DNA of 64,000 nt from a virus, in IMG/VR virus record IMGVR_UViG_3300046170_000433, positions 1 to 64,000 of that record; one strand, 5' to 3'. A program made the translations under genes and the position numbers. Shown in pieces: positions 171-63,605 of this stretch (position 1 is its first letter; every line of letters begins with the position of its first letter). The notes beneath the pieces are model-generated. The model had not been told where the DNA came from. It searched no databases and worked only from the letters and a program-made list of their open reading frames with translations.

Positions 171-845
171 ATGACAAATCTAATCAATCAAAATAATCAA
201 GATCAAGCCAATGCATTAATTCCCGAACCACGTCATAATTTTAATAGCGTTGAATCAAGCGGAAATTTTGTAGCCAATGAAATTTTGTCAAAGCAATACA
301 CAAATGACAAAGGCGAGATAAAAGGCGGAAACCAAGTAGGATATCAAGTAAGCTTTTCGGATATCAATATCCTATCCAATGAAATGAGAAAAGAATTGGA
401 AAGTAATAATCAAAAATTCTTATATCATTGGGACGCCTTTGAAACGATTGCCAATGAAGTCAAAGACTTGACACCTGCCAAAATTGGCAAGGCATTAAAT
501 GAATTGCTCGCGGAAGATTTTGGGAAAGCCCCAAAAAATGGCGGGGACAAGCGCTTATCCAATAGCCAAAAGAATAGATATATAAACGGCTTTTATAGCG
601 GTATTAATAGGCTAAAAAACTTGATCGAAGCCAAATGCAAAGAAATCGAAGATCAAGAGCAATTAATTCCCACGGGCTTTATTATCAAAAATAATGGCGA
701 GTCAAAGCGTACTTATCAAAGAATGAGAAAAGTAAGCGAACCACGCCAACGCAAGGCAAAGCCCCAAAAGACTGAAGCGCAAATACGTGAGCAATTGAAA
801 GCGGAATTAATGGCGGAAGTCAAAGCGGAATTAGGCTTAGAGTAA
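171..845 (+). CDS. Hypothetical early protein, 224 aa, atypical composition
   Basis: Long ORF, first gene of the early block, helical C-terminus; no family recognised. Confidence 0.8.
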   Translation: MTNLINQNNQDQANALIPEPRHNFNSVESSGNFVANEILSKQYTNDKGEIKGGNQVGYQVSFSDINILSNEMRKELESNNQKFLYHWDAFETIANEVKDLTPAKIGKALNELLAEDFGKAPKNGGDKRLSNSQKNRYINGFYSGINRLKNLIEAKCKEIEDQEQLIPTGFIIKNNGESKRTYQRMRKVSEPRQRKAKPQKTEAQIREQLKAELMAEVKAELGLE

Positions 846-982
846 GCCAATTCCATCCCCTTTGCTTAGCGTTGGACTAGGCAAAGGCAAGGCAATCGTA
901 AACGTGCCACGCAATGCGTGATGGTGGCAAGCCCATACGAAACGTGAGTCAATTGTTCTTTACAAGTAATTGATAGATTTAG

Positions 983-1036
983 CCCAAAAAATTTGGGGCA
1001 AACTAGATCGATTAATTCCCAAAAAATTTGGGGCAA
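983..1036 (+). repeat. 19-nt exact direct repeat, each copy a hairpin
   Basis: CCCAAAAAATTTGGGGCAA at 983-1001 and 1018-1036. Confidence 0.9.
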
Positions 1037-1044
1037 CTTGGTCA

Positions 1045-1055
1045 GCTCTTTGACA
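1045..1055 (+). promoter_or_regulatory. boxA-like antitermination element
   Basis: GCTCTTTGACA resembles rrn/lambda boxA (GCTCTTTAACA); a weaker copy GTTCTTTACAA lies at 955-965; both are followed by TAATTGATAG. Confidence 0.55.
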
Positions 1056-1068
1056 TTTAATTGATAGT

Positions 1069-2024
1069 CTTTGCAAAATTTGCAAAGGCAATACGTGAAG
1101 CAATTACAAATTGATTCCACATCGACGTAGAATTGTATTTGATTGCGGTAGATATCTTGATTTGCGCAAAACCCTTTTGATAAGTTTGCGAGTAGAGTCA
1201 GCGACGTAATGAGTCGGCATGATCTTGTAAGCTTTCCCTTTAGGCACGTTGGCGTAGTACTCACTACCATATAGCAATCCAATGCATTAACTTATAGCGA
1301 CAAGCGTAGTAGATTAGAATTGGCAGATATAACTAGCAGGTTCGAAGTCTTAGGATCGGATGATGATCGTAGCGATGCGATGGCACTAATAGTGGTGTTC
1401 AAGTGTGAGGGAAAATTCCTCATGGGCGAACGATAAAACCATTGCATTGTTCGGCTAAGAGAACTTAGTCGCGTAGACACCCCACAAGGATATACCTTGG
1501 ATCAGTAGCAAGGGGGGCGTACGTATTCGGATACAACAAAACGAATTGTATTCTATATTTGGCGACATCGGTTGCTTGGTTGGCAATACCCATCGCATAG
1601 ACAATGATCATCTCTATTTGATTATCTATGTGGTCTTGTATTGACACCCGAAAAAACGAGAGGGGAATTGCTCGGATCGATGGAACTTGTTCGGTGAACC
1701 ATGTGTCACTTTGGAAACATAACGAACTAACGGAAATTAAAATGCCTAGGCGTGTAATGATTATTTAGAAGATGATATGCCTATCGGTTTGGTCAGCCGA
1801 AGAAATTATACTAAGGAGATAACCTAATTATTATCGAGTGTTCACTCTTATGGGTGTTCACAATAGTCGCAACGCAACCGCGTTGCTTTTTTGATTATTA
1901 ACCCGATGTGGTCTGTACGTACTGAGCTACGTGCAGACTACGTCACAACACGTAGTTGGAACGTAAACTACTTGCGAGCAAGAGAGAATCATAGGCAGTC
2001 AATCGCTGACGCACGTTCTACTAC
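1069..2024 (+). ncRNA. Candidate large structured noncoding RNA, family not identified
   Basis: No credible ORF; nested long-range complements 1191-1204/2003-2022, 1224-1231/1971-1978, 1519-1525/1916-1922, 1565-1571/1903-1909; many local hairpins with G-U pairs; terminator directly downstream. Confidence 0.72.
1928..1964. repeat. 37-bp quasi-palindromic element, copy 1
   Basis: TACGTGCAGACTACG-N7-ACGTAGTT-N2-AACGT, same layout as 63569-63605. Confidence 0.85.
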
Positions 2025-2031
2025 AAAACCT

Positions 2032-2075
2032 AGCCCTTCCAGAGCTTTTGTGCTTCTGGGAGGGCTTTTCTTTTT
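2032..2075 (+). terminator. Rho-independent terminator
   Basis: AGCCCTTCCAGAGC/GCTTCTGGGAGGGCT stem followed by a T-tract. Confidence 0.9.
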
Positions 2076-2114
2076 ACTACTCACCAAACAATAACATCCA
2101 ACAAAGGAAAAATA

Positions 2115-2240
2115 ATGAATCAGTACTATAAAATGTTCGGGGATATGATTGAAGGTATCCTTAACTCACCATTCTTTATACCTACCCTATTCGGCATAGG
2201 TATTCTCTCGGTCATACTTGATATGTGTGGCCTTCTGTAA
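2115..2240 (+). CDS. Small membrane protein, 41 aa (below the ORF-track cutoff)
   Basis: AAAGGA Shine-Dalgarno; MNQYYKMFGDMIEGILNSPFFIPTLFGIGILSVILDMCGLL has one hydrophobic helix. Confidence 0.6.
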   Translation: MNQYYKMFGDMIEGILNSPFFIPTLFGIGILSVILDMCGLL

Positions 2241-2258
2241 CCCAAATAACTAGGATAC
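2237..2258. promoter_or_regulatory. 22-bp palindromic motif
   Basis: GTAACCCA-AATAAC-TAGGATAC upstream of ATG 2280. Confidence 0.8.
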
Positions 2259-2279
2259 TAACAAAGGAAAGGTAATATA

Positions 2280-2627
2280 ATGAACAATCAAAGTAAATTA
2301 AAACTAGCTCAATCAGCAGTGATTGGCGCACTTAAAAACGTACTTGGTGATGACGCCCATCTATTGGATAGGCTCATTGCTACAAGAGGTAAGAACAAGG
2401 GATTCCTCAAGTCTACTCCACCCAAGTGTGGTACTGATGAAGAGCCTTTGTACTTGGCTCTAATTTCAGAGGCTAACCCTCACCTTCTTAGTATTGGACG
2501 TCTGTTCTTCTTAAGGGATGAACAAAGGATCAAGTTCAACACTTGGGAGAAAACATTTCGAGATATCAAAGCTATCCGATACCTCTGCAAGAATCGTGTT
2601 ACTCTCGACATGCTAGGAGTTTATTAA
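2280..2627 (+). CDS. Hypothetical early protein
   Basis: ORF with strong Shine-Dalgarno, in operon. Confidence 0.8.
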   Translation: MNNQSKLKLAQSAVIGALKNVLGDDAHLLDRLIATRGKNKGFLKSTPPKCGTDEEPLYLALISEANPHLLSIGRLFFLRDEQRIKFNTWEKTFRDIKAIRYLCKNRVTLDMLGVY

Positions 2628-2628
2628 G

Positions 2629-2817
2629 ATGAGCAAATTCTCACAAATAAAGAACCGATCATTACACCTTCAATGGGACAGAGAAACTAACGTCTTGAAG
2701 GTTTTTCAAATGAATAAACTACGCAAAGTAAATGGCTTTAACATGAAGGAAATAGCTACCTTCCACAATGTAACTAGTGGGCTTACTTTCAAGCCTTCAA
2801 CAACAAAGGAAATATAA
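2629..2817 (+). CDS. Hypothetical early protein
   Basis: Packed 1 nt from both neighbours. Confidence 0.65.
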   Translation: MSKFSQIKNRSLHLQWDRETNVLKVFQMNKLRKVNGFNMKEIATFHNVTSGLTFKPSTTKEI

Positions 2818-2818
2818 T

Positions 2819-3622
2819 ATGAGTGAACTAATACCAAAAATACAACTAACTTTAGGAGATAAAGTTCTGGAAACCACGCGAAGAATGGTGACTGCCCTAT
2901 CGAAATTCGATGCAGTCGGGTCAATTAAGCATAATGGCAATTGTAATGAGGTGTATGACGCCATTAACGAAGAGATAGCAGACTTCCAAAACTATCTTGG
3001 TGCTACTGATGGAGATGATGCTACGCATTTCTTCGGTCATGAAGAGGCTCTTACTATTGCCAATGTATCTGCATTGGATGATGCATATGAGCAGATAGCA
3101 CAAGCTCGTTGGCTATTGGGTAGTGACGCAAATAAGGTACAGATTTCTGATTGTCTGCAAGCATGGATAGATCATCTGTATAAGTATGCTAATGCTTGTG
3201 ACAAGCATACCTTTAGATTCTTTGATGGTCATAGTACGTTCGAGCTAGAGGATGGTAAGCATCCCTTCCCTAATATGCAACTTCTGTTGGAAGAGCGTCT
3301 TGGTCTACGATTATGCATTGATGATGGTCGCTACTATTATATGGCTTACGATGGCAGAGGTGCAGAGTATGGTGATTGGCAGTTCTGTCCTAAAGTTGAA
3401 GAGCGTGTATGTTACTCGCAAGGCAAACCCATTAAACTAGAGGATGGATCATACAAGAAGGATGAGTATGGCAAGATAGTCTACTCAGAGTTCACACAAT
3501 ATGTAGATCGTGAATACATCATCGAGGTGACCAAGCACTCAACAGATCCTGACCAAGTTCACACCATAGATGTACCATTCGGTAAGTTCTACGGATTCTA
3601 TACACAAATAATTAATCAGTAA
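2819..3622 (+). CDS. Hypothetical early protein
   Basis: ORF 2777-3622; ATG 2819 (MSELI) follows an AAGGA Shine-Dalgarno. Confidence 0.8.
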   Translation: MSELIPKIQLTLGDKVLETTRRMVTALSKFDAVGSIKHNGNCNEVYDAINEEIADFQNYLGATDGDDATHFFGHEEALTIANVSALDDAYEQIAQARWLLGSDANKVQISDCLQAWIDHLYKYANACDKHTFRFFDGHSTFELEDGKHPFPNMQLLLEERLGLRLCIDDGRYYYMAYDGRGAEYGDWQFCPKVEERVCYSQGKPIKLEDGSYKKDEYGKIVYSEFTQYVDREYIIEVTKHSTDPDQVHTIDVPFGKFYGFYTQIINQ

Positions 3623-3640
3623 CCTAGAAATATATATTAC
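3619..3640. promoter_or_regulatory. 22-bp palindromic motif
   Basis: GTAACCTA-GAAATA-TATATTAC abutting ATG 3641. Confidence 0.7.
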
Positions 3641-4204
3641 ATGAAGAAAATAATAATCAGAGCATGCAACATTGCTAGTGTATGCAGAGTAACCATTGAT
3701 GATGTAGAGCAACGCTACATCTATCTCAAGAAAGGTGATATTGTGCTAGCTGAAGATCATAAGGAAGATACCATTCCATTTGATAAGCTACCAATAGATG
3801 TAGCCAATGAGGTTGAGGATCACTTCAATTATCTATTCGCAGTACCACTAGAGCAACGTGGCAAGGCATTAGCTGACTCTTCTGTGGTAGGCATCATGAA
3901 GGATGTCCATTGTGAGGCAGATGGTCTTGTTGAGACTATCTCTTTGCTAGTAGATACACTTCATCCCGATCTGTCACAAGATGAGCAGAATGAGCTTATC
4001 CATGAAGAGGATGGCTACTTAGATAGCTTTAAGAAGGAACACAAAGGTGATCGTACTTACATAATATCCCTTAAGCCCAAGCATGGGCTGAGATGTAGCA
4101 CTAAATACAGATACGAAACCAATGTAGCCATGCTAACGATCAGCCCCCCTAGAGGTGACTATGCAGACTACAAAGTAACAACAACAAGAAAGGTAATACT
4201 ATGA
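3641..4204 (+). CDS. Hypothetical early protein
   Basis: 187-aa ORF; ATGA overlap with the next gene. Confidence 0.8.
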   Translation: MKKIIIRACNIASVCRVTIDDVEQRYIYLKKGDIVLAEDHKEDTIPFDKLPIDVANEVEDHFNYLFAVPLEQRGKALADSSVVGIMKDVHCEADGLVETISLLVDTLHPDLSQDEQNELIHEEDGYLDSFKKEHKGDRTYIISLKPKHGLRCSTKYRYETNVAMLTISPPRGDYADYKVTTTRKVIL

Positions 4205-4431
4205 GTAAACCAATAGACCCAATATCATTCATGGAGATGCTAGCTATCGAAGCTAAGAAGTTCTCCGACTTAATCAATGTCCACACATGGAACAGAAGAG
4301 AGATTAGTATCCAAGGTAAGGTCATGCAGTATATGTACGACAAGTGGATCGGCTCTACTCGTGAGGTTTCCACCGAAAAGTTACCATCTTGGCATGAATG
4401 CGATCAGTTCAATCGAACGCATCATCAGTGA
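4201..4431 (+). CDS. Hypothetical early protein
   Basis: ATGA-coupled ORF with Shine-Dalgarno. Confidence 0.6.
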   Translation: MSKPIDPISFMEMLAIEAKKFSDLINVHTWNRREISIQGKVMQYMYDKWIGSTREVSTEKLPSWHECDQFNRTHHQ

Positions 4432-4705
4432 CCTATTCAACTCATGCAGATGGTATATGTGTGGGCTGAATAGTACTTGGTCTGTTGAGGCATGGTGCTA
4501 CACCTTTAAGATCGATGAGGTAGAGACTAAAGATGGTCTATTCTATGTCCTCGATCATGAGGATGGCACGTTTGAGGTCGTTAGACGGTGGCTTTCCAGG
4601 GAGGAGAACGAGGTCGAGCATGTAAAGGGCGACTTCGATAACAGATACCGAGCAAAACTATGGCTCGAGGAGAACTATGAACAACTAACAAGAAAGGATA
4701 AGTAA
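4277..4705 (+). CDS. Hypothetical early protein (true start probably further downstream)
   Basis: C-terminal half looks coding; N-terminal part overlaps the previous ORF. Confidence 0.55.
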   Translation: MSTHGTEERLVSKVRSCSICTTSGSALLVRFPPKSYHLGMNAISSIERIISDLFNSCRWYMCGLNSTWSVEAWCYTFKIDEVETKDGLFYVLDHEDGTFEVVRRWLSREENEVEHVKGDFDNRYRAKLWLEENYEQLTRKDK

Positions 4706-4707
4706 GT

Positions 4708-5010
4708 ATGAAACTAATACAGAAATTAATCTACCAAGGACTCAATGAACTTGAGTGGAAGTATCACAACTCATCGTGCAAGACCTATGAGGAGCGTCTG
4801 CCGACTATCGATAAGGTAATGCGTGAGGTGCAAGATCATCCTCATGCATTGTTCCTAACAGATAAGCAACTCAACGCAGTCCAAGTGGCTATCGATTTCG
4901 AGATTGAAAGCCTTGAGCAAAATCTTCCCGAGGATCCTGATCATGGTGAGGATAAACTAGCACAAGCTAAGGCAGTAAAAGAAAAAATAGAAAGGTTGTT
5001 CAATGAGTGA
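4708..5010 (+). CDS. Hypothetical early protein
   Basis: Operon-packed ORF. Confidence 0.75.
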   Translation: MKLIQKLIYQGLNELEWKYHNSSCKTYEERLPTIDKVMREVQDHPHALFLTDKQLNAVQVAIDFEIESLEQNLPEDPDHGEDKLAQAKAVKEKIERLFNE

Positions 5011-5281
5011 AACAAAATACTTAGTGAGAAGAGAATATTGGGATGCCGAGAATGATCGGTGGATCCTGACAACATTAAATGCACATGGAGAAGCGGGTCT
5101 GAACTTTATGCAAGGTGATGACTATAAGACATTCAAGGGTCAGTTCGGTGAACCCGATCCTAAGCTTTCTGCATTATACAATGTAGTAATGGACAACAAG
5201 ATCATTGATGATGTTGTTCCTGAGATTGAGGCAATCAATCGAGTCTGTTGGGCATACCTTAAACTGAAGCTCGGGACATGA
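5003..5281 (+). CDS. Hypothetical early protein
   Basis: Operon-packed ORF with AAGG Shine-Dalgarno. Confidence 0.75.
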   Translation: MSETKYLVRREYWDAENDRWILTTLNAHGEAGLNFMQGDDYKTFKGQFGEPDPKLSALYNVVMDNKIIDDVVPEIEAINRVCWAYLKLKLGT

Positions 5282-5472
5282 TTGATATACATATCGACAG
5301 CATTGCTCATGACTTGTGGGTTCTCTCTGCTCTTCAAGATGGAGAGGACTTTGAACTTGGATGTGCAACAGCAGAACCATCTAAACGCGAGGCTATTGAA
5401 CTAGCTAAGCAATACAAAAAAGAAATAACCGCAGACAAGGTCTGCATAATCATAGAAGGAAACGAAATATGA
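5278..5472 (+). CDS. Hypothetical early protein
   Basis: ATGA-coupled ORF. Confidence 0.65.
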   Translation: MIDIHIDSIAHDLWVLSALQDGEDFELGCATAEPSKREAIELAKQYKKEITADKVCIIIEGNEI

Positions 5473-5717
5473 AAATATATACATTCGGAATAATACTACA
5501 GAGGGATGAACTCATGGGCTATGGAAGAACTGCAAAGGGTGCAGAAGAGATGTGTCACAAAGCATACAAGGCTATCACTTCTAGTTGGGATGAGGAATAT
5601 GCCCCAAGAGATTGGAGCAAAGCTAAGGAGTACTTCGGTATTGTCGCTAGAGAAGAGCTAGAAATCCCATGTGCAACATATGATAACGAACTAATCAAAA
5701 AGGAGGCATATAAATAA
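5469..5717 (+). CDS. Hypothetical early protein
   Basis: ATGA-coupled ORF. Confidence 0.7.
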   Translation: MKIYTFGIILQRDELMGYGRTAKGAEEMCHKAYKAITSSWDEEYAPRDWSKAKEYFGIVAREELEIPCATYDNELIKKEAYK

Positions 5718-5718
5718 T

Positions 5719-6477
5719 ATGAAACTATTAGATACAGGTGGGGGCAACACAAAGCTCCGTAAGAATAACGCAAATATCAGTGATGGTATCTTTACTATGA
5801 TCGGCAAGGTTATGAGCAAGAAACCTACTGGAATGAGGGTAGCCGGATTGAGCCTAGCTCCATCGGATTGGGCTTGTCCAGCTTCTAGGTTGGCAGGTTG
5901 TCAGAAACCATGCCTCATGTCAGCAGGCTATGGCAAGTTCGACAATGTACGGACGGGTCGTGAGAAGAAAAGGGATTGGCTCAGAGATGATCGTGAGTCT
6001 TTCTTGGCTCAGTTGACTAAGGAGTTACATAACTTCGAGAAGCTGACTACCAAGCAAGGTGTACAAGGAGTTGTACGTCTCAATGTCATCTCAGATATCG
6101 TATGGGAGAATAAAAGATATGAGATACCGCAGCAGTTCCCTAACCTTTTCTTCTATGACTACACTAAGATGTCTAGTCGAATTGGTAAGACTCCTGACAA
6201 CTATCCATTGATGTTCTCCTGGAGTGGTATGCCTAACTACCAACCTTCTGTACAACGTGCCTTAAAGACTGATGCCCCTATGGCAGTGGTGTTTGATTGT
6301 GAGTTCCCTAAGGAGTTCCTTGGTCGTGTAGTACATGATGGAGATAAGTCAGACTTATTTAATCTTACTAAGAAGAATGATGTTATCGCTCTTAAGGCTA
6401 AGGGTGATGCTAAAGGTTCTAATGATCCATTTGTTGTGTCTAGTCGCAACGCTAACCGCCACCTTCTTGTGGCATAA
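5719..6477 (+). CDS. Gp88-like phage protein (Cys cluster, radical-SAM-like fold)
   Basis: CP-x5-C-x3-C motif, VRLNVISDI and FYDYTK motifs typical of this family. Confidence 0.75.
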   Translation: MKLLDTGGGNTKLRKNNANISDGIFTMIGKVMSKKPTGMRVAGLSLAPSDWACPASRLAGCQKPCLMSAGYGKFDNVRTGREKKRDWLRDDRESFLAQLTKELHNFEKLTTKQGVQGVVRLNVISDIVWENKRYEIPQQFPNLFFYDYTKMSSRIGKTPDNYPLMFSWSGMPNYQPSVQRALKTDAPMAVVFDCEFPKEFLGRVVHDGDKSDLFNLTKKNDVIALKAKGDAKGSNDPFVVSSRNANRHLLVA

Positions 6478-6479
6478 TT

Positions 6480-6501
6480 GTAACCCAAATAACTAGGAAA
6501 C
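6480..6501. promoter_or_regulatory. 22-bp palindromic motif
   Basis: GTAACCCA-AATAAC-TAGGAAAC, 7 nt before ATG 6509. Confidence 0.8.
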
Positions 6502-6508
6502 TAATATC

Positions 6509-6811
6509 ATGAGTGAAACTAAAAAACGAATAATCAAATTCATTATTAACGCCATCAAGGACACGCAGTTGACCTTGGATAACCTTGAATATCTTAGCGA
6601 TGAGAAGTACACCGATGTCGCAAGAGGTATCGTTCGAGGCTTGGGTACATCCATCCAACGAGTTGCCGAGCAGTTTGATGGGCATTCTGATGACAAGCTT
6701 CATGGCTTCTGTGCTTGGACAACATTCATCATCATGAGGGACTTCGAGCGTAGAGATGTTGATGAGTCAATTGCTGATGCATTGGCCAACTTTGAGGGGA
6801 AATTAGCATGA
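6509..6811 (+). CDS. Hypothetical early protein
   Basis: ORF following the motif. Confidence 0.75.
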   Translation: MSETKKRIIKFIINAIKDTQLTLDNLEYLSDEKYTDVARGIVRGLGTSIQRVAEQFDGHSDDKLHGFCAWTTFIIMRDFERRDVDESIADALANFEGKLA

Positions 6812-7053
6812 GTAAGGTAAAGCCAGGAATAGTTAAGGTAGCTGAATACCTATTCGATAGATGGAGTGACGAATGGATGTACGAAGACTTCGATGACTAC
6901 ATTAAACATGCCAAAGAAACTGTAGAGAAACAAGGTGGAGAGTTTATCCATCTTAAAAAGAAACCTTTCGTCCTTAGATACAAGCAGGATGAAGAAATCT
7001 TGGAAGTTAAATGTAACTCCAAGCAAGTAAAAGTAACCCAAATAAATAAATAA
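6808..7053 (+). CDS. Hypothetical early protein
   Basis: ATGA-coupled ORF. Confidence 0.75.
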   Translation: MSKVKPGIVKVAEYLFDRWSDEWMYEDFDDYIKHAKETVEKQGGEFIHLKKKPFVLRYKQDEEILEVKCNSKQVKVTQINK

Positions 7054-7054
7054 C
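7033..7054. promoter_or_regulatory. 22-bp palindromic motif
   Basis: GTAACCCA-AATAAA-TAAATAAC, 1 nt before ATG 7056. Confidence 0.7.
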
Positions 7055-7055
7055 A

Positions 7056-7787
7056 ATGAGTGATAATATAACCGTAGAAGAAGCAAAGAAACAACTAGCA
7101 GATGCCATTGCGCGAGGGCCTAAGCCACGATGGGAACTCAAGCCACCCACAATGGATGACATGCAGACCCTCAAGAATCTCATCGATGAGGTTGAGAGTA
7201 AGCATTCCGAGTTAGAGGATGAAAGGCAGACTCTTCAAGACCAGTGGAATGATCAGGTGCGTACATACAATGGAGCAGTTGACGAGTTCAATTCCGCTCA
7301 AGCCAATCTAGCTGACCATCTAAATCACAATACCAACTGGAGGGATAGTGTCGAAGATTACTTCAGTCAAGAAGAGGAAGAGAATGGTGTAGTAGTAAGC
7401 GATAAGTTGCGCGAGTTGCTAGTTAACATCAACGAGAAGGTAGATGAGTTCTGTACTACTGATGTAGAAGGCGAGGAGTCTGATAAATACATCGAAGAAG
7501 CAGACCTAGATGAATCTCATGGTGTAGCTAATGATGTCCATGCTCAACTCGAGACACTACAAGAATACCTAGATAAGAAAGATGAGGTTGATGCTGAAAT
7601 CAAGAAACAAGTCGAAGGTTGGAATTGGAATCTAAATCAATTCGAGGTTTACGATGAGATTAGAGAATACCCCAAGGATAAGATACAAGCCTTATTGCAG
7701 TATGCATGTAAGTTCTTCAATCCCAACGACACATTCAAAGACCTAGCTAATCACCTAAATGTAGAGATTGATACAGATGAGTCTTAA
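7056..7787 (+). CDS. Acidic coiled-coil hypothetical protein
   Basis: 243 aa, very D/E-rich, heptad pattern. Confidence 0.8.
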   Translation: MSDNITVEEAKKQLADAIARGPKPRWELKPPTMDDMQTLKNLIDEVESKHSELEDERQTLQDQWNDQVRTYNGAVDEFNSAQANLADHLNHNTNWRDSVEDYFSQEEEENGVVVSDKLRELLVNINEKVDEFCTTDVEGEESDKYIEEADLDESHGVANDVHAQLETLQEYLDKKDEVDAEIKKQVEGWNWNLNQFEVYDEIREYPKDKIQALLQYACKFFNPNDTFKDLANHLNVEIDTDES

Positions 7788-8001
7788 TTACGAACACATA
7801 TCCGAGGAGGAGGTGACAGATTTACTCTGTCGCCTCCTTAATGACTACGAAAAGAAACAAGAGGCTCTGTTTACCAATGGTGGCTCACCCGATGTATTTC
7901 ATTGGCAAGACTTAGTCAATGCATGCCGTGAGTTCATAGAGGTTTCTACCATGAATGCACCAATACGGAGCGGAGCGGATGATAGGAAGGAGGATAAATA
8001 A
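7768..8001 (+). CDS. Hypothetical early protein
   Basis: Operon-packed ORF. Confidence 0.7.
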   Translation: MIQMSLNYEHISEEEVTDLLCRLLNDYEKKQEALFTNGGSPDVFHWQDLVNACREFIEVSTMNAPIRSGADDRKEDK

Positions 8002-8309
8002 TGGAATACACAAAAAGAAAAGTAACTGAGGAAGAGCTACATGACTTACCTCATCTGTTCTTCAATACAGGTTGTAGATACACAAAGCATGGACAGCGCT
8101 TACTAGCACTAAAGCTAGATGAAGATGTCCTTTGTTATGACTACGACAGATGTATCGAATACCTCTTTGAGGACTGCCCTATGAAAGAGAGGGAGATTGA
8201 AAGAAGAGAGAAAGCAATGGGCCAAAAGAAGACCTTCTTCCAAGAAGGGATTATCAATTGGAGGGTGTGGAAGCACTGGCAAGATAAACTAAACATAGAA
8301 AGGGACTAA
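8001..8309 (+). CDS. Hypothetical early protein
   Basis: AAGGAGG Shine-Dalgarno. Confidence 0.75.
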   Translation: MEYTKRKVTEEELHDLPHLFFNTGCRYTKHGQRLLALKLDEDVLCYDYDRCIEYLFEDCPMKEREIERREKAMGQKKTFFQEGIINWRVWKHWQDKLNIERD

Positions 8310-8310
8310 A

Positions 8311-8667
8311 ATGAGTAAGAAAACATATAAAATACCAATAGAGTGGAAGTCTTATGGCTATAATGTCATCGAGGCTGAATCATTAGAGGATGCAATGGAG
8401 ACAGCTAAGCATGAGTCTCTACCACAAGGTGACTATCTGATAGATTCAGACAAGTTCGATTGGGGAAGCATCAAGGAGCAATACCCCGATGAGTGGAAAG
8501 ACGAGAAGCTAGTCAAGGAGTACCAAGAATATGTTCGGGACTTCATGGAAAAGACAAAGGCAATGATCAATTGCTTGCTTCCGGCAACCTATGACCAATG
8601 GAGGGCTTCCAAGCTACTAGAACTACAAACAACAACCAACAGAATAGAAGATATAATGGAGGACTAA
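8311..8667 (+). CDS. Hypothetical early protein
   Basis: Operon-packed; contains IEAESLEDA, a motif common in small phage proteins. Confidence 0.75.
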   Translation: MSKKTYKIPIEWKSYGYNVIEAESLEDAMETAKHESLPQGDYLIDSDKFDWGSIKEQYPDEWKDEKLVKEYQEYVRDFMEKTKAMINCLLPATYDQWRASKLLELQTTTNRIEDIMED

Positions 8668-8668
8668 T

Positions 8669-8932
8669 ATGAGTATAGAAAAAGAACTGAACGAAGAAGT
8701 AAAGAAATCCTGGGGGAATGATATTCCTCTTACCATAAGGCAACTTGAGTTGACATCTCATACACTTGAGATGCTTCGCATTGAGCTAGAGGAGGACTTC
8801 TGTAACTGCAAAGACCAATGGCATGACCCCGAGACTGGGTTTAATCTAGTCAGTAACATGAAGGCATTCAAGTCTGTGCAAGAGGAGATTGATCGAAAGA
8901 TTGGTCAATTAAAGGATCAGCAAATTAATTAA
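8669..8932 (+). CDS. Hypothetical early protein
   Basis: GGAGG Shine-Dalgarno. Confidence 0.75.
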   Translation: MSIEKELNEEVKKSWGNDIPLTIRQLELTSHTLEMLRIELEEDFCNCKDQWHDPETGFNLVSNMKAFKSVQEEIDRKIGQLKDQQIN

Positions 8933-8957
8933 AATTCTTGCTGCAAATTAACAAAAT

Positions 8958-8979
8958 GTAACCTAAATTAATAGATAAC
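8958..8979. promoter_or_regulatory. 22-bp palindromic motif
   Basis: GTAACCTA-AATTAA-TAGATAAC, 1 nt before ATG 8981. Confidence 0.8.
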
Positions 8980-8980
8980 T

Positions 8981-9358
8981 ATGGAACATGAATTCGAGAT
9001 GGAAGAGATGACCATATTTGGTATCGATGTAGTCGTATCAGGTAAGGTCGAGTATAACATCGAGGATACTGCCGTGGGTTATGTCCCCTATGGGGACACC
9101 CATGTGTGGCATCCAGGTGGTGGAATGCAAGCAATAGACATAAAGCTCATTGAGCTGACTGAGCTTGTTGTTACGGGTAATTATGTGGATGGGAAGTGCA
9201 TCGTTGATGCAGGTGAAGTGAATCTCATCACATTACTTAACCAAGGTAAGGATAAAGTGTGGGAATCTATAGCACAAAAAGTCGAGCTTGATGATGCAAT
9301 TGAGTCTGAGACTGAGAGTGCTAAGGAAGAAGCCGCATTAGCGAGGGCTGGATTATGA
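8981..9358 (+). CDS. Acidic hypothetical protein
   Basis: ORF following the motif. Confidence 0.75.
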   Translation: MEHEFEMEEMTIFGIDVVVSGKVEYNIEDTAVGYVPYGDTHVWHPGGGMQAIDIKLIELTELVVTGNYVDGKCIVDAGEVNLITLLNQGKDKVWESIAQKVELDDAIESETESAKEEAALARAGL

Positions 9359-9741
9359 AGAATGATCCTAGATACTTGCTAGACTATGACAGACGTGTGG
9401 AGGTGTATCGTAACCTTCATAAGGGCTGTTGGTCTATCCGACAAGATGGGTTGGTAAAAGCTCATACTGATATGGCATTCTTATTCAATCCTAGGTTTGT
9501 CGTTCGAGAGAATGGTAGGCTTAGGGTTAATGAGAAGAGGAGCAAGAATGTTCACGCATGGCTAACGGGTATCTTACATGAGAATCCGAGCCGTGTGCAT
9601 GAGATTGGCAACTCCCATTGGCGTATGGTCACCTACGATCCGTACAAATATAAATCGTTTGTCACAAAGTCAGACAAGCAACCAGTAGATAACGCCAAAC
9701 AAGCGTGGATGATGACTCCCTATGTTTGGATTAAACAATAA
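9355..9741 (+). CDS. Conserved phage hypothetical protein
   Basis: VYRNLHK...WS and K-N-V-H-A motifs seen in a widespread phage family of unknown function. Confidence 0.75.
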   Translation: MKNDPRYLLDYDRRVEVYRNLHKGCWSIRQDGLVKAHTDMAFLFNPRFVVRENGRLRVNEKRSKNVHAWLTGILHENPSRVHEIGNSHWRMVTYDPYKYKSFVTKSDKQPVDNAKQAWMMTPYVWIKQ

Positions 9742-9748
9742 TAAGATT

Positions 9749-9770
9749 GTAACCTAGATAATTATATTAC
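9749..9770. promoter_or_regulatory. 22-bp palindromic motif
   Basis: GTAACCTA-GATAAT-TATATTAC, 2 nt before ATG 9773. Confidence 0.75.
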
Positions 9771-9772
9771 AA

Positions 9773-11395
9773 ATGAATGATGAAAAAAACTATGAAGAAG
9801 AACAAATACAAGGCATACTTACCGAGAACGTCGTTACTCACCTCTCTATGTGTTCGGGATACGAAGGAATGGGCAGAGGGCTTAGAGGAATATTCCCTAA
9901 CTTGCGAGAAATCGCATACGTGGAACGGGAAGGATACGCTTGCGCGAACTTGGTTGCAAAGATTGAAGAGGGTGAATTGGCTGAGGCACCTGTCTTTACG
10001 GATGTTAAAGAGTTCCCATACGGAAAGTTCCGTGGATGCGTGGACATCTTATCTGCGGGCTTCCCTTGCCAACCCTTCAGCTCGTCAGGCATTCGGAAAG
10101 GAACTGAAGACCCGAGGCATCTGTTCCCCTTCATCGCAAACGGAATTAATCTTTGCCGACCAAACTGGGTCGCCCTCGAAAATGTCGAAGGAATCATCAG
10201 TTGTAAGTTCGGTGGCGAGCAGAACACAAGCGTTCTCAAATATGTCTTGGCAAGAATGGAAGAAATTGGTTACGAAGGTGCGTTCACTGTGGTCAGTGCG
10301 AGTGAAGAAGGCGCGCCTCACCAACGTAAAAGAGTCTTCATGCTCTTCCGCAACGCACACCCAGATGAATCTGAACGACCATTGGGGGACGCCGAAGGAG
10401 CAGGACTCCCGAGCCTGTCTAGTGGATCGGGGGAAGAGCAACCTTGGCGAGCAGGTACATGGCCTGCACGTCCAGGGCAAGCTCAGCACGGATGGGAAGC
10501 CCCAAGGGTTGTCATGGCCGACACCAAGGACAGGGAAGACGGACGGGACACCCGAGTCGGAAAAGAACAGACAGAGTCCGAGTCTGTCATCAGTAGCTCT
10601 GGGGGACGAGAAGACTTGGCCGACACCAACGACAGGGGAGGAGAAAGCAACTCGCCCGATGGGCAACCAAAAGCAGAAGATGCTCAGCCATGTAGCGATA
10701 ACGGAGACGGCTATTCAACAATCGAAAGATGCGTCCGGCAAAGCATGGGCAACCCCATCGACAATGGACACGCTTCCTCCGAAGAATGCCGAGGCACTAG
10801 CAAGGAACAAGAAGAAGGGAGGGTGCAAGAATCTGAGGGAGGATGTAGTGAAGACAGAACTAGTGAATCCTCAGATAATGTTCCCAACTCCGACAGTTGC
10901 AGGATTAGTGGAGGGCGGAGTAGCCAAGAATGTGGAGATGACGGAGACGGGCTTCACAGCGACACGGGAGAACGGGACGAAGTACGGAGCGAAGCTGAGG
11001 GATGCCGTGGAGAAGATGGAGAGTTGGGCGACACCACAAGCGAGCGATCATGTGGAAGGAGCGAGAACCTCCTTGGATTCCAACCAGAAATGTTTGGGGA
11101 GGGACTTGAAACAACAATGGGCGACTCCTCAAGCTTACGATCACAACAAGAACCCCGAGTCGGAAGTGAACAGCAAGCAAGCTACACTAGCGAGGAATCT
11201 GGGAAGGCTGAATACTCACGGGAAACTGAACCCGAATTGGGTAGAACAGCTAATGGGCCTTCATCAGGGTACTACGCTACTCCCGAGGAAATGGCTCTGC
11301 GAGTCCCCCGACTTAGACTCTTAGGGAATGGCATTGTGCCAGCCCAAGCCGAGCGAGCATACAGAATCCTGTTTGCTCGTTTCATTAACATGTAA
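9773..11395 (+). CDS. C5-cytosine DNA methyltransferase, catalytic (alpha-type) chain
   Basis: Motif I SMCSGYEG, IV GFPCQPFS, VI ENVEG, VIII QRKRVF, X RLLGNGIVP; motif IX is missing from this frame. Confidence 0.92.
   Translation: MNDEKNYEEEQIQGILTENVVTHLSMCSGYEGMGRGLRGIFPNLREIAYVEREGYACANLVAKIEEGELAEAPVFTDVKEFPYGKFRGCVDILSAGFPCQPFSSSGIRKGTEDPRHLFPFIANGINLCRPNWVALENVEGIISCKFGGEQNTSVLKYVLARMEEIGYEGAFTVVSASEEGAPHQRKRVFMLFRNAHPDESERPLGDAEGAGLPSLSSGSGEEQPWRAGTWPARPGQAQHGWEAPRVVMADTKDREDGRDTRVGKEQTESESVISSSGGREDLADTNDRGGESNSPDGQPKAEDAQPCSDNGDGYSTIERCVRQSMGNPIDNGHASSEECRGTSKEQEEGRVQESEGGCSEDRTSESSDNVPNSDSCRISGGRSSQECGDDGDGLHSDTGERDEVRSEAEGCRGEDGELGDTTSERSCGRSENLLGFQPEMFGEGLETTMGDSSSLRSQQEPRVGSEQQASYTSEESGKAEYSRETEPELGRTANGPSSGYYATPEEMALRVPRLRLLGNGIVPAQAERAYRILFARFINM
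9777..11324 (+). CDS. Overlapping +1-frame protein, putative methyltransferase beta-type chain
   Basis: 515 codons without a stop, fully inside the MTase gene; seven (W/F)xTP modules; C-terminal KLNPNWVEQLMGL resembles motif IX. Confidence 0.75.
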   Translation: MMKKTMKKNKYKAYLPRTSLLTSLCVRDTKEWAEGLEEYSLTCEKSHTWNGKDTLARTWLQRLKRVNWLRHLSLRMLKSSHTESSVDAWTSYLRASLANPSARQAFGKELKTRGICSPSSQTELIFADQTGSPSKMSKESSVVSSVASRTQAFSNMSWQEWKKLVTKVRSLWSVRVKKARLTNVKESSCSSATHTQMNLNDHWGTPKEQDSRACLVDRGKSNLGEQVHGLHVQGKLSTDGKPQGLSWPTPRTGKTDGTPESEKNRQSPSLSSVALGDEKTWPTPTTGEEKATRPMGNQKQKMLSHVAITETAIQQSKDASGKAWATPSTMDTLPPKNAEALARNKKKGGCKNLREDVVKTELVNPQIMFPTPTVAGLVEGGVAKNVEMTETGFTATRENGTKYGAKLRDAVEKMESWATPQASDHVEGARTSLDSNQKCLGRDLKQQWATPQAYDHNKNPESEVNSKQATLARNLGRLNTHGKLNPNWVEQLMGLHQGTTLLPRKWLCESPDLDS

Positions 11396-11413
11396 CCCAA
11401 ATAACTAGATAAC
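11392..11413. promoter_or_regulatory. 22-bp palindromic motif
   Basis: GTAACCCA-AATAAC-TAGATAAC, 10 nt before ATG 11424. Confidence 0.8.
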
Positions 11414-11423
11414 TAATACTACC

Positions 11424-11933
11424 ATGAGTGATATATACAAAGAACTAATCGCCCTTCAACGGGCAAACAATAACGTCAGAACCAAGGTTAACGAGTGGCT
11501 TCAACAGAATGTGCATGAGGATGCAGAGTCCCTTCAGTCCATTGTTATGGATGAACTTGGTGAGCTTCTTCCGATGCCCGAGGGTGGTTGGCTTGAGGGC
11601 TATGAAGACAGAGAAGCACAGATTGAGCAAGTCAAGGAGAAGCTATACAAGGATTTGCTCGCCTTCCTCAAGGACGAGCCAGTCAAGCGTGAGGAAGTTG
11701 TGGAGGTAGAAGACCCAACTCAACCAATCGTGGAAGAGCCTAAGCCTGAGCCTAAGCCTAAACCTAAGCCAAAGCCTAAGCCCAAGCCTGCTGACAACGA
11801 GGTTGCTACTGCAATCGTCACTCTACTCAACAGCAGTAAGGGTGCTGGTATCACAGAGGAGAGAGTCCGTGAGATAGTCCGTGAGGAAATATCTAAGATG
11901 GTCGATCAACTCTATATCGGTGTGCTTTCATGA
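11424..11933 (+). CDS. Hypothetical protein with Pro-Lys linker
   Basis: (PK)n tract encoded by CCWAAR-type hexamer repeats at about 11739-11790. Confidence 0.8.
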   Translation: MSDIYKELIALQRANNNVRTKVNEWLQQNVHEDAESLQSIVMDELGELLPMPEGGWLEGYEDREAQIEQVKEKLYKDLLAFLKDEPVKREEVVEVEDPTQPIVEEPKPEPKPKPKPKPKPKPADNEVATAIVTLLNSSKGAGITEERVREIVREEISKMVDQLYIGVLS

Positions 11934-12208
11934 GTAACCGAATGCCTGAAGAAGCGGAGGAGGAGGTACAGCCCCCTCCGTTTGATATGGATGGAACCTA
12001 CAAGCATTTCAATGAGAATGCCATACCTATGGATATGTGGTCTAAATCAGAATGCTTGATGGCTAGATTCCAAGAGCTATCCCTGCCTATGGAGCTATAC
12101 CCGAGTTGCTACATGCAAGTCGAGCAAGGTGCTATGCTCCTTATGTGGACGGTGGATAAAGAAAAAGAACAAGTAGGCTATGCCCTACATATGTTACCTC
12201 AGACCTAA
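11930..12208 (+). CDS. Hypothetical protein
   Basis: ATGA-coupled ORF. Confidence 0.65.
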   Translation: MSNRMPEEAEEEVQPPPFDMDGTYKHFNENAIPMDMWSKSECLMARFQELSLPMELYPSCYMQVEQGAMLLMWTVDKEKEQVGYALHMLPQT

Positions 12209-12216
12209 CCTAACAA

Positions 12217-12393
12217 TTTGAGCTAAGCAGATTCCTAGTGAGTCTCCCTCTATTTGCCCCACAAAAAAGCGAAGAAGCATCTTATGTATGTGCTTCCTAG
12301 CTGGGGTTGTCTGAGGACGGGGAGACAAGGGATATGGCAAGCGTGGGCAGAAAATCCACGTGATAACCCGAAACCTGTCTGCACGGCTCTAAA
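12217..12393 (+). ncRNA. Candidate structured intergenic RNA element
   Basis: Nested complements GAGC/GCTC, GCAGA/TCTGC, ATTCCT/AGGGAT, GTCTCCC/GGGAGAC, GAAGCAT/GTGCTTC, CGTGG/CCACG. Confidence 0.45.
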
Positions 12394-12413
12394 CCTAAAG
12401 AAAGGAAATCAAG

Positions 12414-13346
12414 ATGATAAATATGTACAGAGACACACACTACCACAACCCATACTTAGATGGATATAATAAAGAACTACTACTCAACAATCTGTCTCGA
12501 GGGATAGAGGCATGCATCCTCGCAAAGTGGGGAACTGTCGGAGTCGATATGGCTGTTGAGAAAAGTGTAATTCAAGCAATGGAGGCATGTAAGATTGATG
12601 CATCCTTCCTTGAGGTCAAGTGGCCTGCTCCTATGATTCGTATGCAATTCGAAGGTAAAGAGCGTAAGGACTTGTGGATCGCACGAGGCAATTACAAGGA
12701 GATGATGGAGGAGGGAACTAGGCTAGCTCGATGGAGTGGTGACAAGCATCAGCTTGATGGCATTGAAACCATGAAGTCGCTATATGAGCATCCTTCCTCT
12801 GTAGAGTGGTCAGATGATACCATACTATATTCTATCCAGAATGTTAGTGAGAGGGGAAATATCAACGGTCACTTTGCGTCTTCGACCACTGGCGAGAACC
12901 TAATTTCCGACTTGCACAAGGCTAGTATCCATGACGATCCAGACCCCGAGAATAGTGCTAGGGTAATATTCGATCATGTGATGTTGGCTTTGAAGGTCAT
13001 GAGTTATGCATCAAATGAATACTTCCGCCCGACACCAGTCAGGAAAGACAATGTGAAGCTTCGGAAGAAACTAAAAAACAAAGGCTTTGATGTGCGCAAG
13101 AAGGGTAGTCTTCAAAGGGTTGTTTACCTCCCTAAGATTGTCCGAGAAGCATGCTCAAAGTCTAAGAGTTATACACCTACTAAACCATTACAGAACGGGA
13201 GAATCGGTTTCTTGAGGCAACTGAGGTCTGACTACTTTGTAAACAAGCAAGGTCAGTCCGTCCTTATCCCTCCCCTACCCGACAAGAACGGTAGATTCCC
13301 TAAAGTTCTATACAAGGTCAAAGACATCAAAGACTTGGCCGCCTAA
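12414..13346 (+). CDS. Hypothetical protein, 310 aa, basic C-terminus
   Basis: Long ORF with AAAGGA Shine-Dalgarno. Confidence 0.8.
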   Translation: MINMYRDTHYHNPYLDGYNKELLLNNLSRGIEACILAKWGTVGVDMAVEKSVIQAMEACKIDASFLEVKWPAPMIRMQFEGKERKDLWIARGNYKEMMEEGTRLARWSGDKHQLDGIETMKSLYEHPSSVEWSDDTILYSIQNVSERGNINGHFASSTTGENLISDLHKASIHDDPDPENSARVIFDHVMLALKVMSYASNEYFRPTPVRKDNVKLRKKLKNKGFDVRKKGSLQRVVYLPKIVREACSKSKSYTPTKPLQNGRIGFLRQLRSDYFVNKQGQSVLIPPLPDKNGRFPKVLYKVKDIKDLAA

Positions 13347-13373
13347 CACAAACCCGCTAACGAAAGGAACGTC

Positions 13374-15860: not shown

Positions 15861-15894
15861 TTAAGTGTAACCTAATGAATAGGAGTGTAACAAA

Positions 15895-16935
15895 ATGAAA
15901 ATAACTAAGAGTGAAAATGGGAACTTCTCAGTAAAGTACAAGGATGCTTCTGGTAACTCTAGGTCAACCAACCTACGCACCAAAGATCGGAAGGAAGCCA
16001 GTAGACTAGTAAAAGATTTACGCATCGAGGAGCTTGAGCAAGCTGGCAAGCTTGGAGTATTGTCAGCCGAGGTGATTACCAAGATTGCTGGCAGTAAGTC
16101 CATGAAGTATTGGGATGTTGTCCAGGAATACGAGCAGCACATGAGAATGTCTGCTATCTCCGAGAACTCCATCTATACGATGATGGCTATCTTTGAACAC
16201 TTCGGTAAGCTGTACAAGGTTATAGATAAACCTATGGCATTAATTGAAGATAAGAAGATATATAATTATCTGAACACCGCTGATGACACATCACTAAGTA
16301 ATCGTGCATTACGGAAGTCTACACTCAGTCAGTTGTGGAACTTTGCTCAGATAAAGATGTATGTCATGGTAAACCCAATGATGTTTATCAAGATCGATAA
16401 GTCTAAGCTCAAGCATGAGCAGAAGACTCCGAAGGAAAGAAAGATATTCTACAAGAAGGAAGTGGATAAGATTATCAAGCATGCCCCTTACTTCTTTAGG
16501 CAGGCTACAGCGTTATCCTATTGGACTGGTCTTAGGCTCGGTGATATCTGTTCTCTCGAGTGGGCAAGCATCAAGGATCGTAATCGTCTAGTCGTATGGA
16601 CAGAGAAAAGAGATAAGCTAGTATCAATTGATACCATGGATCCTGCCTTTGGTGGTGGGATTGTAAAAGAAGTACTAGCCGAGATTGATGTAGAGGATAA
16701 GGTCTACTGCTTTCCTTCATGGCACAAGACCATGAGTGACCCCAAGAATAGGTCAAAGGCTAGTGTTTACTTCGGCAGGATCTGCGAACGATTAGAGATT
16801 CACGGCAGAAGCTTTCATTGCCTTCGCCATTCCTGTATCACAAGGTTAAGTAAGATCGGTGTGAGTATTGAAGCTATCGGCAAGGCTGTTGGTCATTCTA
16901 ATACCAAGACAACCGAAGGCTATATACACAAGTGA
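15895..16935 (+). CDS. Tyrosine recombinase/integrase 1
   Basis: TGLRLGD, HCLRH, VGHS and catalytic Tyr (EGYIH); N-terminal arm-binding-like segment; a variant GTAACCTA site lies at 15867. Confidence 0.92.
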   Translation: MKITKSENGNFSVKYKDASGNSRSTNLRTKDRKEASRLVKDLRIEELEQAGKLGVLSAEVITKIAGSKSMKYWDVVQEYEQHMRMSAISENSIYTMMAIFEHFGKLYKVIDKPMALIEDKKIYNYLNTADDTSLSNRALRKSTLSQLWNFAQIKMYVMVNPMMFIKIDKSKLKHEQKTPKERKIFYKKEVDKIIKHAPYFFRQATALSYWTGLRLGDICSLEWASIKDRNRLVVWTEKRDKLVSIDTMDPAFGGGIVKEVLAEIDVEDKVYCFPSWHKTMSDPKNRSKASVYFGRICERLEIHGRSFHCLRHSCITRLSKIGVSIEAIGKAVGHSNTKTTEGYIHK

Positions 16936-17154
16936 CTACTTGTTAAGTTCGAAGAGGCGTTTGATATCATCGCGCCTATCTTCGACTACCTTCTCAAGGT
17001 TATTGATACGCTCGTGATTCCTAGCTTGGTTAATCTCCAGTCTAGCATTCCTTGCCTTAATTAAATCAATCTCCTCTTTCATTCTCTTTAGAAAGAAACC
17101 TAGCACTGATAGTGCAGCACCAACTCCTATGAGAATATAGTAGTCCATGCTCAC
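16936..17154 (-). CDS. Small membrane protein with coiled coil (holin- or spanin-like)
   Basis: One N-terminal transmembrane helix followed by heptads. Confidence 0.6.
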   Translation of the reverse strand: MSMDYYILIGVGAALSVLGFFLKRMKEEIDLIKARNARLEINQARNHERINNLEKVVEDRRDDIKRLFELNK

Positions 17155-63568: not shown

Positions 63569-63605
63569 TACGTGCAGACTACGGCAGATAACGTAGTTTC
63601 AACGT
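63569..63605. repeat. 37-bp quasi-palindromic element, copy 2
   Basis: TACGTGCAGACTACG-N7-ACGTAGTT-N2-AACGT, 5 nt after the int stop. Confidence 0.85.

Follow-up and report, generated by a model that had tools for sequence, protein, structure and literature searches.

A probable new family of modular structured RNA, with a putative twister-type ribozyme in front, ahead of the early genes of a phage

Phage P4 CI RNA immunity and the HK022 put RNA both rely on structured untranslated leaders, which stand at the start of an early operon and are followed by a terminator that has to be passed. The RNA elements involved are small (~70-300 nt). GOLLD and ROOL are often placed beside tRNA genes in phage or prophage DNA. 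They are large 'ornate' RNAs of bacteria and phages for which cryo-EM structures exist (PMC12286853). Here we analyse a stretch of phage DNA that can be compared with both kinds of system: the gene-free positions 846-2114 of the window, which comprises bases 1-64000 of a 75,615-nt IMG/VR phage record (IMGVR_UViG_3300046170_000433). A sequence-only reading of this window had proposed a single giant structured non-coding RNA at 1069-2024. We find that the region is quite probably a genuine structured non-coding RNA region on the plus strand: a modular new family that is preceded by a twister-type ribozyme and closed by a conserved terminator.

The locus shares several properties with GOLLD and ROOL. 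It belongs to the 0.6-1 kb class, is carried by a (pro)phage, does not code for protein and contains many conserved helices and junctions. Unlike GOLLD and ROOL, it matches no covariance model, has no adjoining tRNA genes and shows no supported global fold or end-closing helix. Its RNA also lies between a promoter-like block and an early-gene terminator, with the twister upstream. The likeness to P4 CI and HK022 put is one of layout only: a structured untranslated leader is followed by a terminator before the early genes. In contrast to these leaders the RNA is ~1 kb long, and we identified neither a conserved complementarity of the seqA/B/C type nor a put-like two-hairpin element.

Searches of the RNA family databases point to novelty. 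No Rfam family reaches its gathering score in the 64-kb window. GOLLD, ROOL, OLE, HEARO, group I and II introns, RNase P and tmRNA give nothing at E<=10 in 800-2200, and raiA and other catalogued large RNAs have no covariance-model match. The twister apart, there is no credible Rfam match at E<=10 in 800-2200 or in the corresponding part of a related phage (L005, 6500-7900). ARAGORN predicts no tRNA gene in the window, and tmRNA detection was also negative. As no covariance model matches, the RNA is therefore a new family and not a detectable member of GOLLD or ROOL. The sequence-only reading had left open a distant member or a new class; none of the known large RNAs matched, so the novelty stands.

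Usable relatives come from three sources, which were found by profile and pattern scans. The 224-aa protein encoded directly upstream of the stretch has 10 homologues in a large protein collection, besides the window's own copy. The first (L004) is 98% identical to the window over 850-1251. The second is L005, with which L007, L008 and others are grouped; this phage measures 76,944 nt, and its flanking protein has 51% identity. The third lineage (L019, L020 and L021, mutually identical here) was reached through a 680-aa gene at 37% identity. In L005 the syntenic gene-free stretch is 1,261 nt long (6586-7846), and its conserved nucleotide patches are collinear with the window over the full length. 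These include a 20-nt exact run, and some runs of 20-30 nt are near-identical; the middle third of the stretch aligns poorly. The syntenic stretch of L021 (~5440-6150, minus strand) measures ~710 nt and shares with the other lineages only its last ~150-200 nt, which we call the 3' module. Among GenBank phages there is no match by DNA, flanking protein or terminase, and the genomes of 185,579 species hold no match to the flanking-protein profile or to a 20-nt core motif. The early-gene proteins have no relatives among viral contigs, where three DNA patterns retrieved already known contigs only.

The 1,269 nt that separate the stop codon at 845 from the ATG at 2115 contain only short open reading frames (ORFs). 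The largest ORF (138 aa, minus strand) has no PHROG match. A six-frame translation compared with the syntenic stretches of L005 and L021 reveals no conserved ORF. All matches are short, fall in several frames on both strands and lie over the same nucleotide-conserved patches; the flanking gene, which serves as a control, scores E 1e-55. Hence the stretch is non-coding, and the absence of a credible ORF over about 1.2 kb, on which the sequence-only reading was built, is borne out. It is well supported that 846-2114 is a conserved non-coding unit on the plus strand that heads the rightward early genes.

When folded as RNA, 1069-2024 reaches -288 kcal/mol versus -247±6 for dinucleotide shuffles (z -6.42). 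The reverse complement reaches only z -1.43. The plus strand also folds better than the minus strand in L005 (z -2.99 versus -0.36) and in L021 (-1.91 versus -0.14). Windows of 150 nt give strong z values at 1351-1650 and 1801-2100, and their mean is -1.7 on the plus strand, -0.7 in neighbouring genes and -0.5 on the minus strand. G-U pairs make up 39 of the 234 pairs (17%) in matched helices on the plus strand. The preference for this strand and a fold better than shuffled sequence, as anticipated from the letters alone, are thus both found. For the alignment of the window with L005, RNAalifold yields -93 kcal/mol compared to -60±6.5 for column-shuffled alignments (z -5.07), with 41 compensatory pairs versus 26±5.4 in the shuffles.

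The conserved structure is local. Thirteen helices of the window have a counterpart in a matching place of L005, and the sequences of the two often differ considerably. If the base-pair probability matrices of the two are combined, only local helices remain, with a span of at most 83 alignment columns. All local hairpins named in the sequence-only reading exist, and four of the five recur in the corresponding place of L005: GUGAGGGAA/UUCCUCAU, GGCUAAG/CUUAGUC, UAGGCGUGU/AUAUGCCUA and GCAACGC/GCGUUGC. The coordinates of the modules and of the elements around them are given in Table 1.

A predicted three-way junction (1372-1451) is the best-supported module. The arms of its outer helix lie 55-70 nt apart, and 8 of the 12 pairs have changed on both sides between the window and L005. 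In a covariance model (R1) and its alignment (A8), helices 1-4 are 100% paired in both sequences and no junction pair is non-standard. Across the whole R1 structure (the junction and the adjacent hairpin, helices 1-5), 12 of 38 pairs have changed on both sides versus 0-2 in slid controls, and 0 of 500 shuffles reach the observed number. Helix 5, the hairpin at 1453-1470, is displaced by one register in this alignment. No second copy of R1 turns up anywhere in the genome of the phage, inside or outside the window, or in L014, L018 or L021. The candidate domain at 1590-1683 has weak support: its interior aligns poorly and contains large indels.

Compensatory double changes also occur among near-identical strains. 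There are three of them: G1203-C1215 becomes A-U in L004, and G1489-C1495 and C1482-G1513 become C-G and U-A in a variant strain seen in two RNA-library runs (X17 and X18). Ten of the 18 substitutions in this variant strain fall at predicted unpaired positions; of the 8 that hit a paired position, 6 leave the pairing intact.

Table 1. Features of the gene-free stretch and its RNA (positions in the window)
Feature	Position	Strand	Description
Gene-free stretch	846-2114	+	Between the 224-aa gene (171-845) and the first early ORF (ATG 2115); from ORF lists
11-bp hairpin	859-887	+	Directly 3' of the upstream stop codon; all 11 pairs standard in window and L005
Putative twister-type ribozyme, type P1 layout	889-960	+	Predicted cut U899^A900
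Promoter/operator-like block	959-1090	+	Two TTKACA-N2-TAATTGATAG boxes (959-976, 1050-1067)
RNA body	1086-2075	+	Inferred limits: promoter-like site (start) and terminator (end)
Two-tier hairpin	1180-1192/1224-1236 and 1197-1205/1213-1223	+	Joint pairing probability with L005 0.92 and 0.83
Three-way-junction domain	1372-1451	+	Outer 12-bp helix 1372-1383/1439-1450, hairpin 1384-1394, arm 1396-1432 with invariant tip
Hairpin GGCUAAG/CUUAGUC	1453-1470	+	L005 has CGAUGCG/CGCAUUG in the same place
Stem with variable tip hairpin (1485-1489/1495-1499)	1472-1523	+	8-bp hairpin in L005, with another sequence
Candidate domain closed by CCAUCG/CGAUGG	1590-1683	+	Counterpart 7348-7355/7481-7488 in L005, one C-G to U-A change
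Hairpin UAGGCGUGU/AUAUGCCUA, closing GCC/GGU	1744-1788	+	Joint probability with L005 0.88; tip 17 nt shorter there
Hairpin with conserved GGGUGUUCA 3' strand	1838-1861	+	In all three lineages; joint probability 0.96-0.97
Hairpin GCAACGC/GCGUUGC and U6	1869-1893	+	Terminator-like in the window lineage only; -13.9 kcal/mol
17-bp hairpin (1905-1921/1928-1944) over five ACGT cores	1905-1966	unassigned	Cores phased every 10-12 nt
Invariant UCGCUGACG	2003-2011	+	Exact in window and L005; just upstream of the terminator
Strong intrinsic terminator	2032-2075	+	13-bp stem 2032-2066, -25.3 kcal/mol, z -5.07, then UUUCUUUUU

The data show a chain of conserved modules; a single global fold gains no support from them. 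Alternatively, the locus could encode a stand-alone giant RNA (~830-1000 nt) with a global fold closed at its ends, which would resemble GOLLD and ROOL and act in trans as a scaffold, a sponge or an RNA-only assembly. We regard this as unlikely. The global z of -6.4 is stronger than that of most 150-nt windows and the unit has a terminator of its own, yet long-range conserved helices are not enriched over shuffles and none has a high joint probability. Helices of at least five pairs that span more than 150 columns and occur in both the window and L005 number 93 versus 87±14 in shuffled alignments, and long-range helices with at least two compensatory pairs number 12 versus 8.6±2.6.

The long-range complements quoted in the sequence-only reading are all present to within 1 nt, but the nest that they were meant to form is not conserved. 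For the closing helix 1191-1204/2003-2022 there is no counterpart at the homologous place in L005, and in the ensemble of the window 1197-1205 pairs locally with 1213-1223 (p>0.5). The 3' arm of the second helix (1219-1231/1971-1992) falls in a stretch that is deleted in L005. GUACGUA/UACGUAC (1519-1525/1916-1922) belongs to a repeated palindromic ACGT motif. Only 1590-1595/1678-1683 has a counterpart in L005, with one compensatory change; the other quoted long-range pairs have none. Two pseudoknots had also been proposed (2011-2016/1929-1934 and 1280-1286/1443-1449), and neither has comparative support. We reject the second, as it competes with the covarying junction helix and is out of register in L005.

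Some other long-range candidates speak for a giant fold. ACGUG (1093-1097) could pair with CACGU (2012-2016) as a terminal helix in the window, and UAUGUAGC (6838-6845) with GCUACAUA (7772-7779) in the same geometry in L005; two of the four aligned pairs are compensatory, which with two lineages is indistinguishable from chance. RNAalifold also proposes 1341-1346/1710-1715 and 1354-1360/1672-1678, with compensatory changes. Against the giant fold, nothing but the 3' module is retained in L021, as would be expected of modules that can be separated, and neither a covariance-model match to GOLLD or ROOL nor neighbouring tRNA genes are found. Hence, the RNA interpretation stands as far as a conserved, structured plus-strand region of ~1 kb without an Rfam match is concerned, and the single nested fold closed by the quoted helix is not supported.

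In twister ribozymes, stems P1, P2 and P4 are essential, while P0, P3 and P5 are optional (PMC5408937). The tertiary contact T1 joins the loops L4 and L1, and T2 uses the conserved GC of L2 (PMC5408937). About ten nucleotides of L1 and L4 are more than 97% conserved, and a conserved A follows the scissile bond (PMC5408937). We find a putative twister-type self-cleaving ribozyme at 889-960. The sequence-only reading overlooked it, 130 nt upstream of the start of its own RNA. A permissive cmscan run reports RF03160 (twister-P1) at 895-954 with 32.6 bits and E 8.1e-5.

The structure of the ribozyme was laid out by hand and each pair was checked by script. Its stems are P1 (889-896/952-960), P2 (902-905/942-945), P3 (909-912/916-919) and P4 (921-924/933-936), with T1 from G926-C950, G927-U949 and C928-G948 and T2 from G906-C932 and C907-G931. 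All of these pairs are standard in the window, and the minimum free energy structure reproduces P1-P4. L005 keeps P1 (10 bp), P2, P4, T1 and T2, with compensatory changes in P1, P2 (two pairs) and P4 (two pairs). It lacks P3 and has a P5 hairpin, and such a swap of optional stems between lineages is allowed in the family. For T1 and T2, formation in two lineages means pairing potential only.

The layout resembles twister type P1 in the order P1-P2-P4, the four-pair P2 and P4, the AAGC of L4, the GAG of L1 and the A (A900) 3' of the predicted cut. It differs from the consensus in T1, which is GGC/GUC here instead of CCC/GGG, and in P1, where a small internal loop causes an offset. On either side of T1 two positions depart from the consensus, and they compensate each other.

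The hairpin at 859-887 directly precedes the ribozyme. It is 97% identical in L005 despite a flanking protein of only 51% identity, and it is unique in the window. U866-G880 becomes C-G in L004 and L005. The hairpin may be the P0 stem of the twister; another possible role is to shield the 3' end that cleavage would leave on the upstream mRNA. In L021 the position of hairpin and twister (6125-6150, minus strand) is taken by CCTAA pentamer repeats, directly 3' of the stop codon of a 143-aa gene, and no ribozyme was detected there.

The block at 959-1090 looks like a regulated promoter, which the sequence-only reading also overlooked. Besides the two boxes it contains two identical 16-nt palindromes (983-998 and 1018-1033) and a third palindrome (1069-1087) that overlaps a -10-like CAAAAT. 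The best sigma-70-like match of the region is TTGACA-18-CAAAAT at 1050-1079. The motifs of the block are unique in the window. In L005 the -35-like box is retained together with its flank (conserved from ~1045), and its palindromes are symmetric though their sequence has changed.

Contigs from RNA libraries (four runs, three studies) cover 1043-2079, and one of them ends at 2079, at the U tract of the terminator. Such contigs show presence, not strand, ends or abundance, and DNA carry-over is possible. No RNA-library contig covers 346-1042 or bridges 2079-2114, an absence that is uninformative. In one run (X16) the contig depth is 12.1 over 1138-1615 and 2-5.6 elsewhere, which cannot rank expression. 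Contigs of two runs (X17 and X18) share a start at 1043. We rejected this start as a transcript end, since it comes with a loose end in the one run (X17) and with a fold-back joint in the other (X18), and it reads as a homology break in the variant strain. This strain, which occurs in RNA libraries of two studies, matches the window from 1043 onward and not before, and the conservation with L005 resumes at ~1045. On these alignments, the promoter/RNA module appears to begin at a mosaic boundary (1043).

The 3' module is the part of the RNA that all three lineages have in common. They share a hairpin with GGRUGUUCA, the motif CGCAAYGCAA and a long hairpin that starts with GAUGU. The terminator-like hairpin at 1869-1893 has a counterpart in L005 without the U run (CGCAG/CUGCG), and L021 lacks its 3' arm but keeps CGCAAYGCAA. 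The hairpin 1905-1921/1928-1944 is kept in the three lineages with compensatory changes. In L021 the five ACGT cores follow each other at an exact 11-nt spacing, and four of the five are AACTACGT direct repeats. A second copy of the ACGT element lies at 63569-63605, with 84% identity over 37 nt to 1928-1964, and starts 6 nt after the stop codon of an integrase-family gene. This position favours a protein-binding role. Besides forming a hairpin, the phased element may serve as an array of protein-binding sites, on DNA or RNA, a role that the sequence-only reading missed. Further downstream, the partner of UCGCUGACG in the window (1196-1204) is not conserved in place in L005; both sequences could pair UCGCUGACG with an invariant UAGCGA (1295-1300).

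The strong terminator that the sequence-only reading saw after the RNA is confirmed (-25.3 kcal/mol, z -5.1). Terminators also close the stretch in L005 (-26.6 kcal/mol) and in L021 (-28.0 kcal/mol, of different sequence), each with a U tract. The distance from the terminator to the next start codon is 40 nt in the window and ~15 nt in L005. The terminator stem is near-identical between the window (2032-2066) and L005 (7794-7828) despite the 51% identity of the flanking protein, which is unusual for a plain terminator. This hints that the sequence of the stem itself may be recognised.

On balance, we favour the explanation that the locus is a modular structured non-coding RNA unit or leader with a twister, which would gate early transcription. 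The unit opens with the hairpin (859-887) and the putative twister (889-960), and a cut in the latter would sever the mRNA of the upstream gene from the downstream RNA. The promoter/operator-like block follows the ribozyme, and the RNA from ~1086 to 2075 is, with good support, a series of at least a dozen modules that each fold on their own. The ACGU hairpin or array (1905-1966) and then the terminator (2032-2075) close the unit. The ribozyme would insulate the RNA from upstream transcription and give it a 5'-OH end whenever it is made by read-through.

More tentatively, the RNA could be an immediate-early leader that decides between stopping at the terminator and reading through into the early genes. 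In both full-length lineages the terminator stands directly before the first early gene and leaves no space for a promoter; a leader is therefore the most plausible role. The gating idea is based on this position and on the sequence-level conservation of the stem and of the patch at 2003-2011. Gating would then be RNA-based termination or antitermination, comparable to P4 CI-RNA immunity or to the HK022 put RNA. The factor that flips the decision would bind to the phased ACGU cores and to the invariant patches that are single-stranded.

Several observations weigh against this explanation. The twister score of 32.6 bits is below the gathering score of 67.2, cmscan reports no twister in L005 (6500-7900), and a genome-wide RF03160 search at E<=10 returns nothing, even in the window's own genome. 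The low score and both misses probably occur because T1 is re-coded. Separately, we note that cmscan and the genome-wide search differ in sensitivity for the variant at 895-954. The promoter and the transcript ends are inferred, and the RNA-library contigs speak for neither strand nor ends and may include DNA. The covariation comes from few sequences, namely two full-length lineages and one partial lineage. Local z values are patchy and come close to zero in two segments (1126-1350 and 1576-1800), support for long-range helices does not exceed chance, and the minus strand of the alignment also scores in RNAalifold (-68.5, z -4.57).

Alignment quality matters as well. In a plain MAFFT alignment, 62% of the 264 window pairs with p>=0.5 are paired in L005, versus 37-45% when slid, and pairs that have changed are retained about as often as expected by chance. 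It is therefore the well-aligned modules that carry the strong signal. The periodicity of the ACGT cores is equally compatible with a DNA-binding array and with an RNA hairpin. The gating mechanism in turn rests on layout alone, and we found neither an antiterminator protein nor a complementary target.

A gating role could also be played by one ornate RNA. In this case 1086-2075 would be a single molecule with paired ends (1093-1097/2012-2016) and an architecture built around the junction. The variant twister with its re-coded T1 would free or insulate it, and it would switch terminator read-through alone or with an ACGU-bound factor. We consider this quite unlikely.

Alternatively, the region could mainly act as DNA, with the RNA being incidental. 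It would then be an early promoter with operators, a replication origin, or a recombinase or partition site with iterons. The end of the record joins its start, genes lie on the plus strand at 171-17000 and then in a long minus-strand block, and the 680-aa gene (minus strand, genome 73261-75303) diverges from the 224-aa gene at 171-845, an order that is repeated in the relatives. The stretch adjoins the divergence point of two transcription directions. It also carries the tandem promoter-like boxes with three palindromes, the spacing of the five ACGT cores corresponds to roughly one helical turn in each of the three lineages (with four cores as direct AACTACGT repeats in L021), and the second ACGT copy adjoins the integrase gene.

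However, palindromes that bind proteins do not explain why 8 of 12 junction pairs changed on both sides of a helix whose arms are 55-70 nt apart. The folding z favours one strand in all three lineages and the G-U pairs favour the same strand, and a conserved terminator stands at the end and a ribozyme at the start. A mainly DNA-level region is, in our view, very unlikely.

That the stretch is merely decayed gene remnants or a neutral spacer structured by chance is scarcely credible and already disfavoured: two segments (1126-1350 and 1576-1800) fold no better than shuffles and the middle aligns poorly with L005, but lineages whose proteins are only 51% identical agree in the length and order of the stretch, near-identical stretches of 20-30 nt with up to 20 nt of exact identity persist, compensatory changes occur at two time scales and no frame shows protein similarity.

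Some further observations concern the surroundings and the invariant patches. The flanking genes have no function according to PHROGs or Pfam. The 680-aa protein (genome 73261-75303; L013 11262-13304, minus strand) is glycine-rich and conserved, matches no family and diverges from the 224-aa gene in all lineages. The non-coding positions 16-158 of the window, 5' of the 224-aa gene, are 76% identical to the L021 lineage (6598-6733), where the 680-aa protein is only 37% identical. They are 94% identical to L014 (408-571), and one genome dyad motif lies inside. This segment is probably a conserved divergent promoter/operator or a 5' leader. Within the RNA, the invariant 10-mer TCTTAGGATC (window 1348) has exactly three copies in the 75.6-kb genome, more than chance predicts; the other two (genome 68872 and 70655) are inside coding regions. 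The reverse complements of the invariant patches show no meaningful recurrence in the genome and reveal no trans target.

A putative natural twister whose T1 is re-coded is relevant to how ribozymes of this kind are missed by present models. If the single ornate switching RNA were true, a defined regulatory function would be assigned to a large orphan RNA of phages. Phage RNAs of the GOLLD/ROOL type are among the biggest RNAs of unknown function, and this locus would add a family from marine phages. Its context is unusually readable, with a putative ribozyme, a promoter-like block and a terminator flush with an early gene, so that its function may be assayable.

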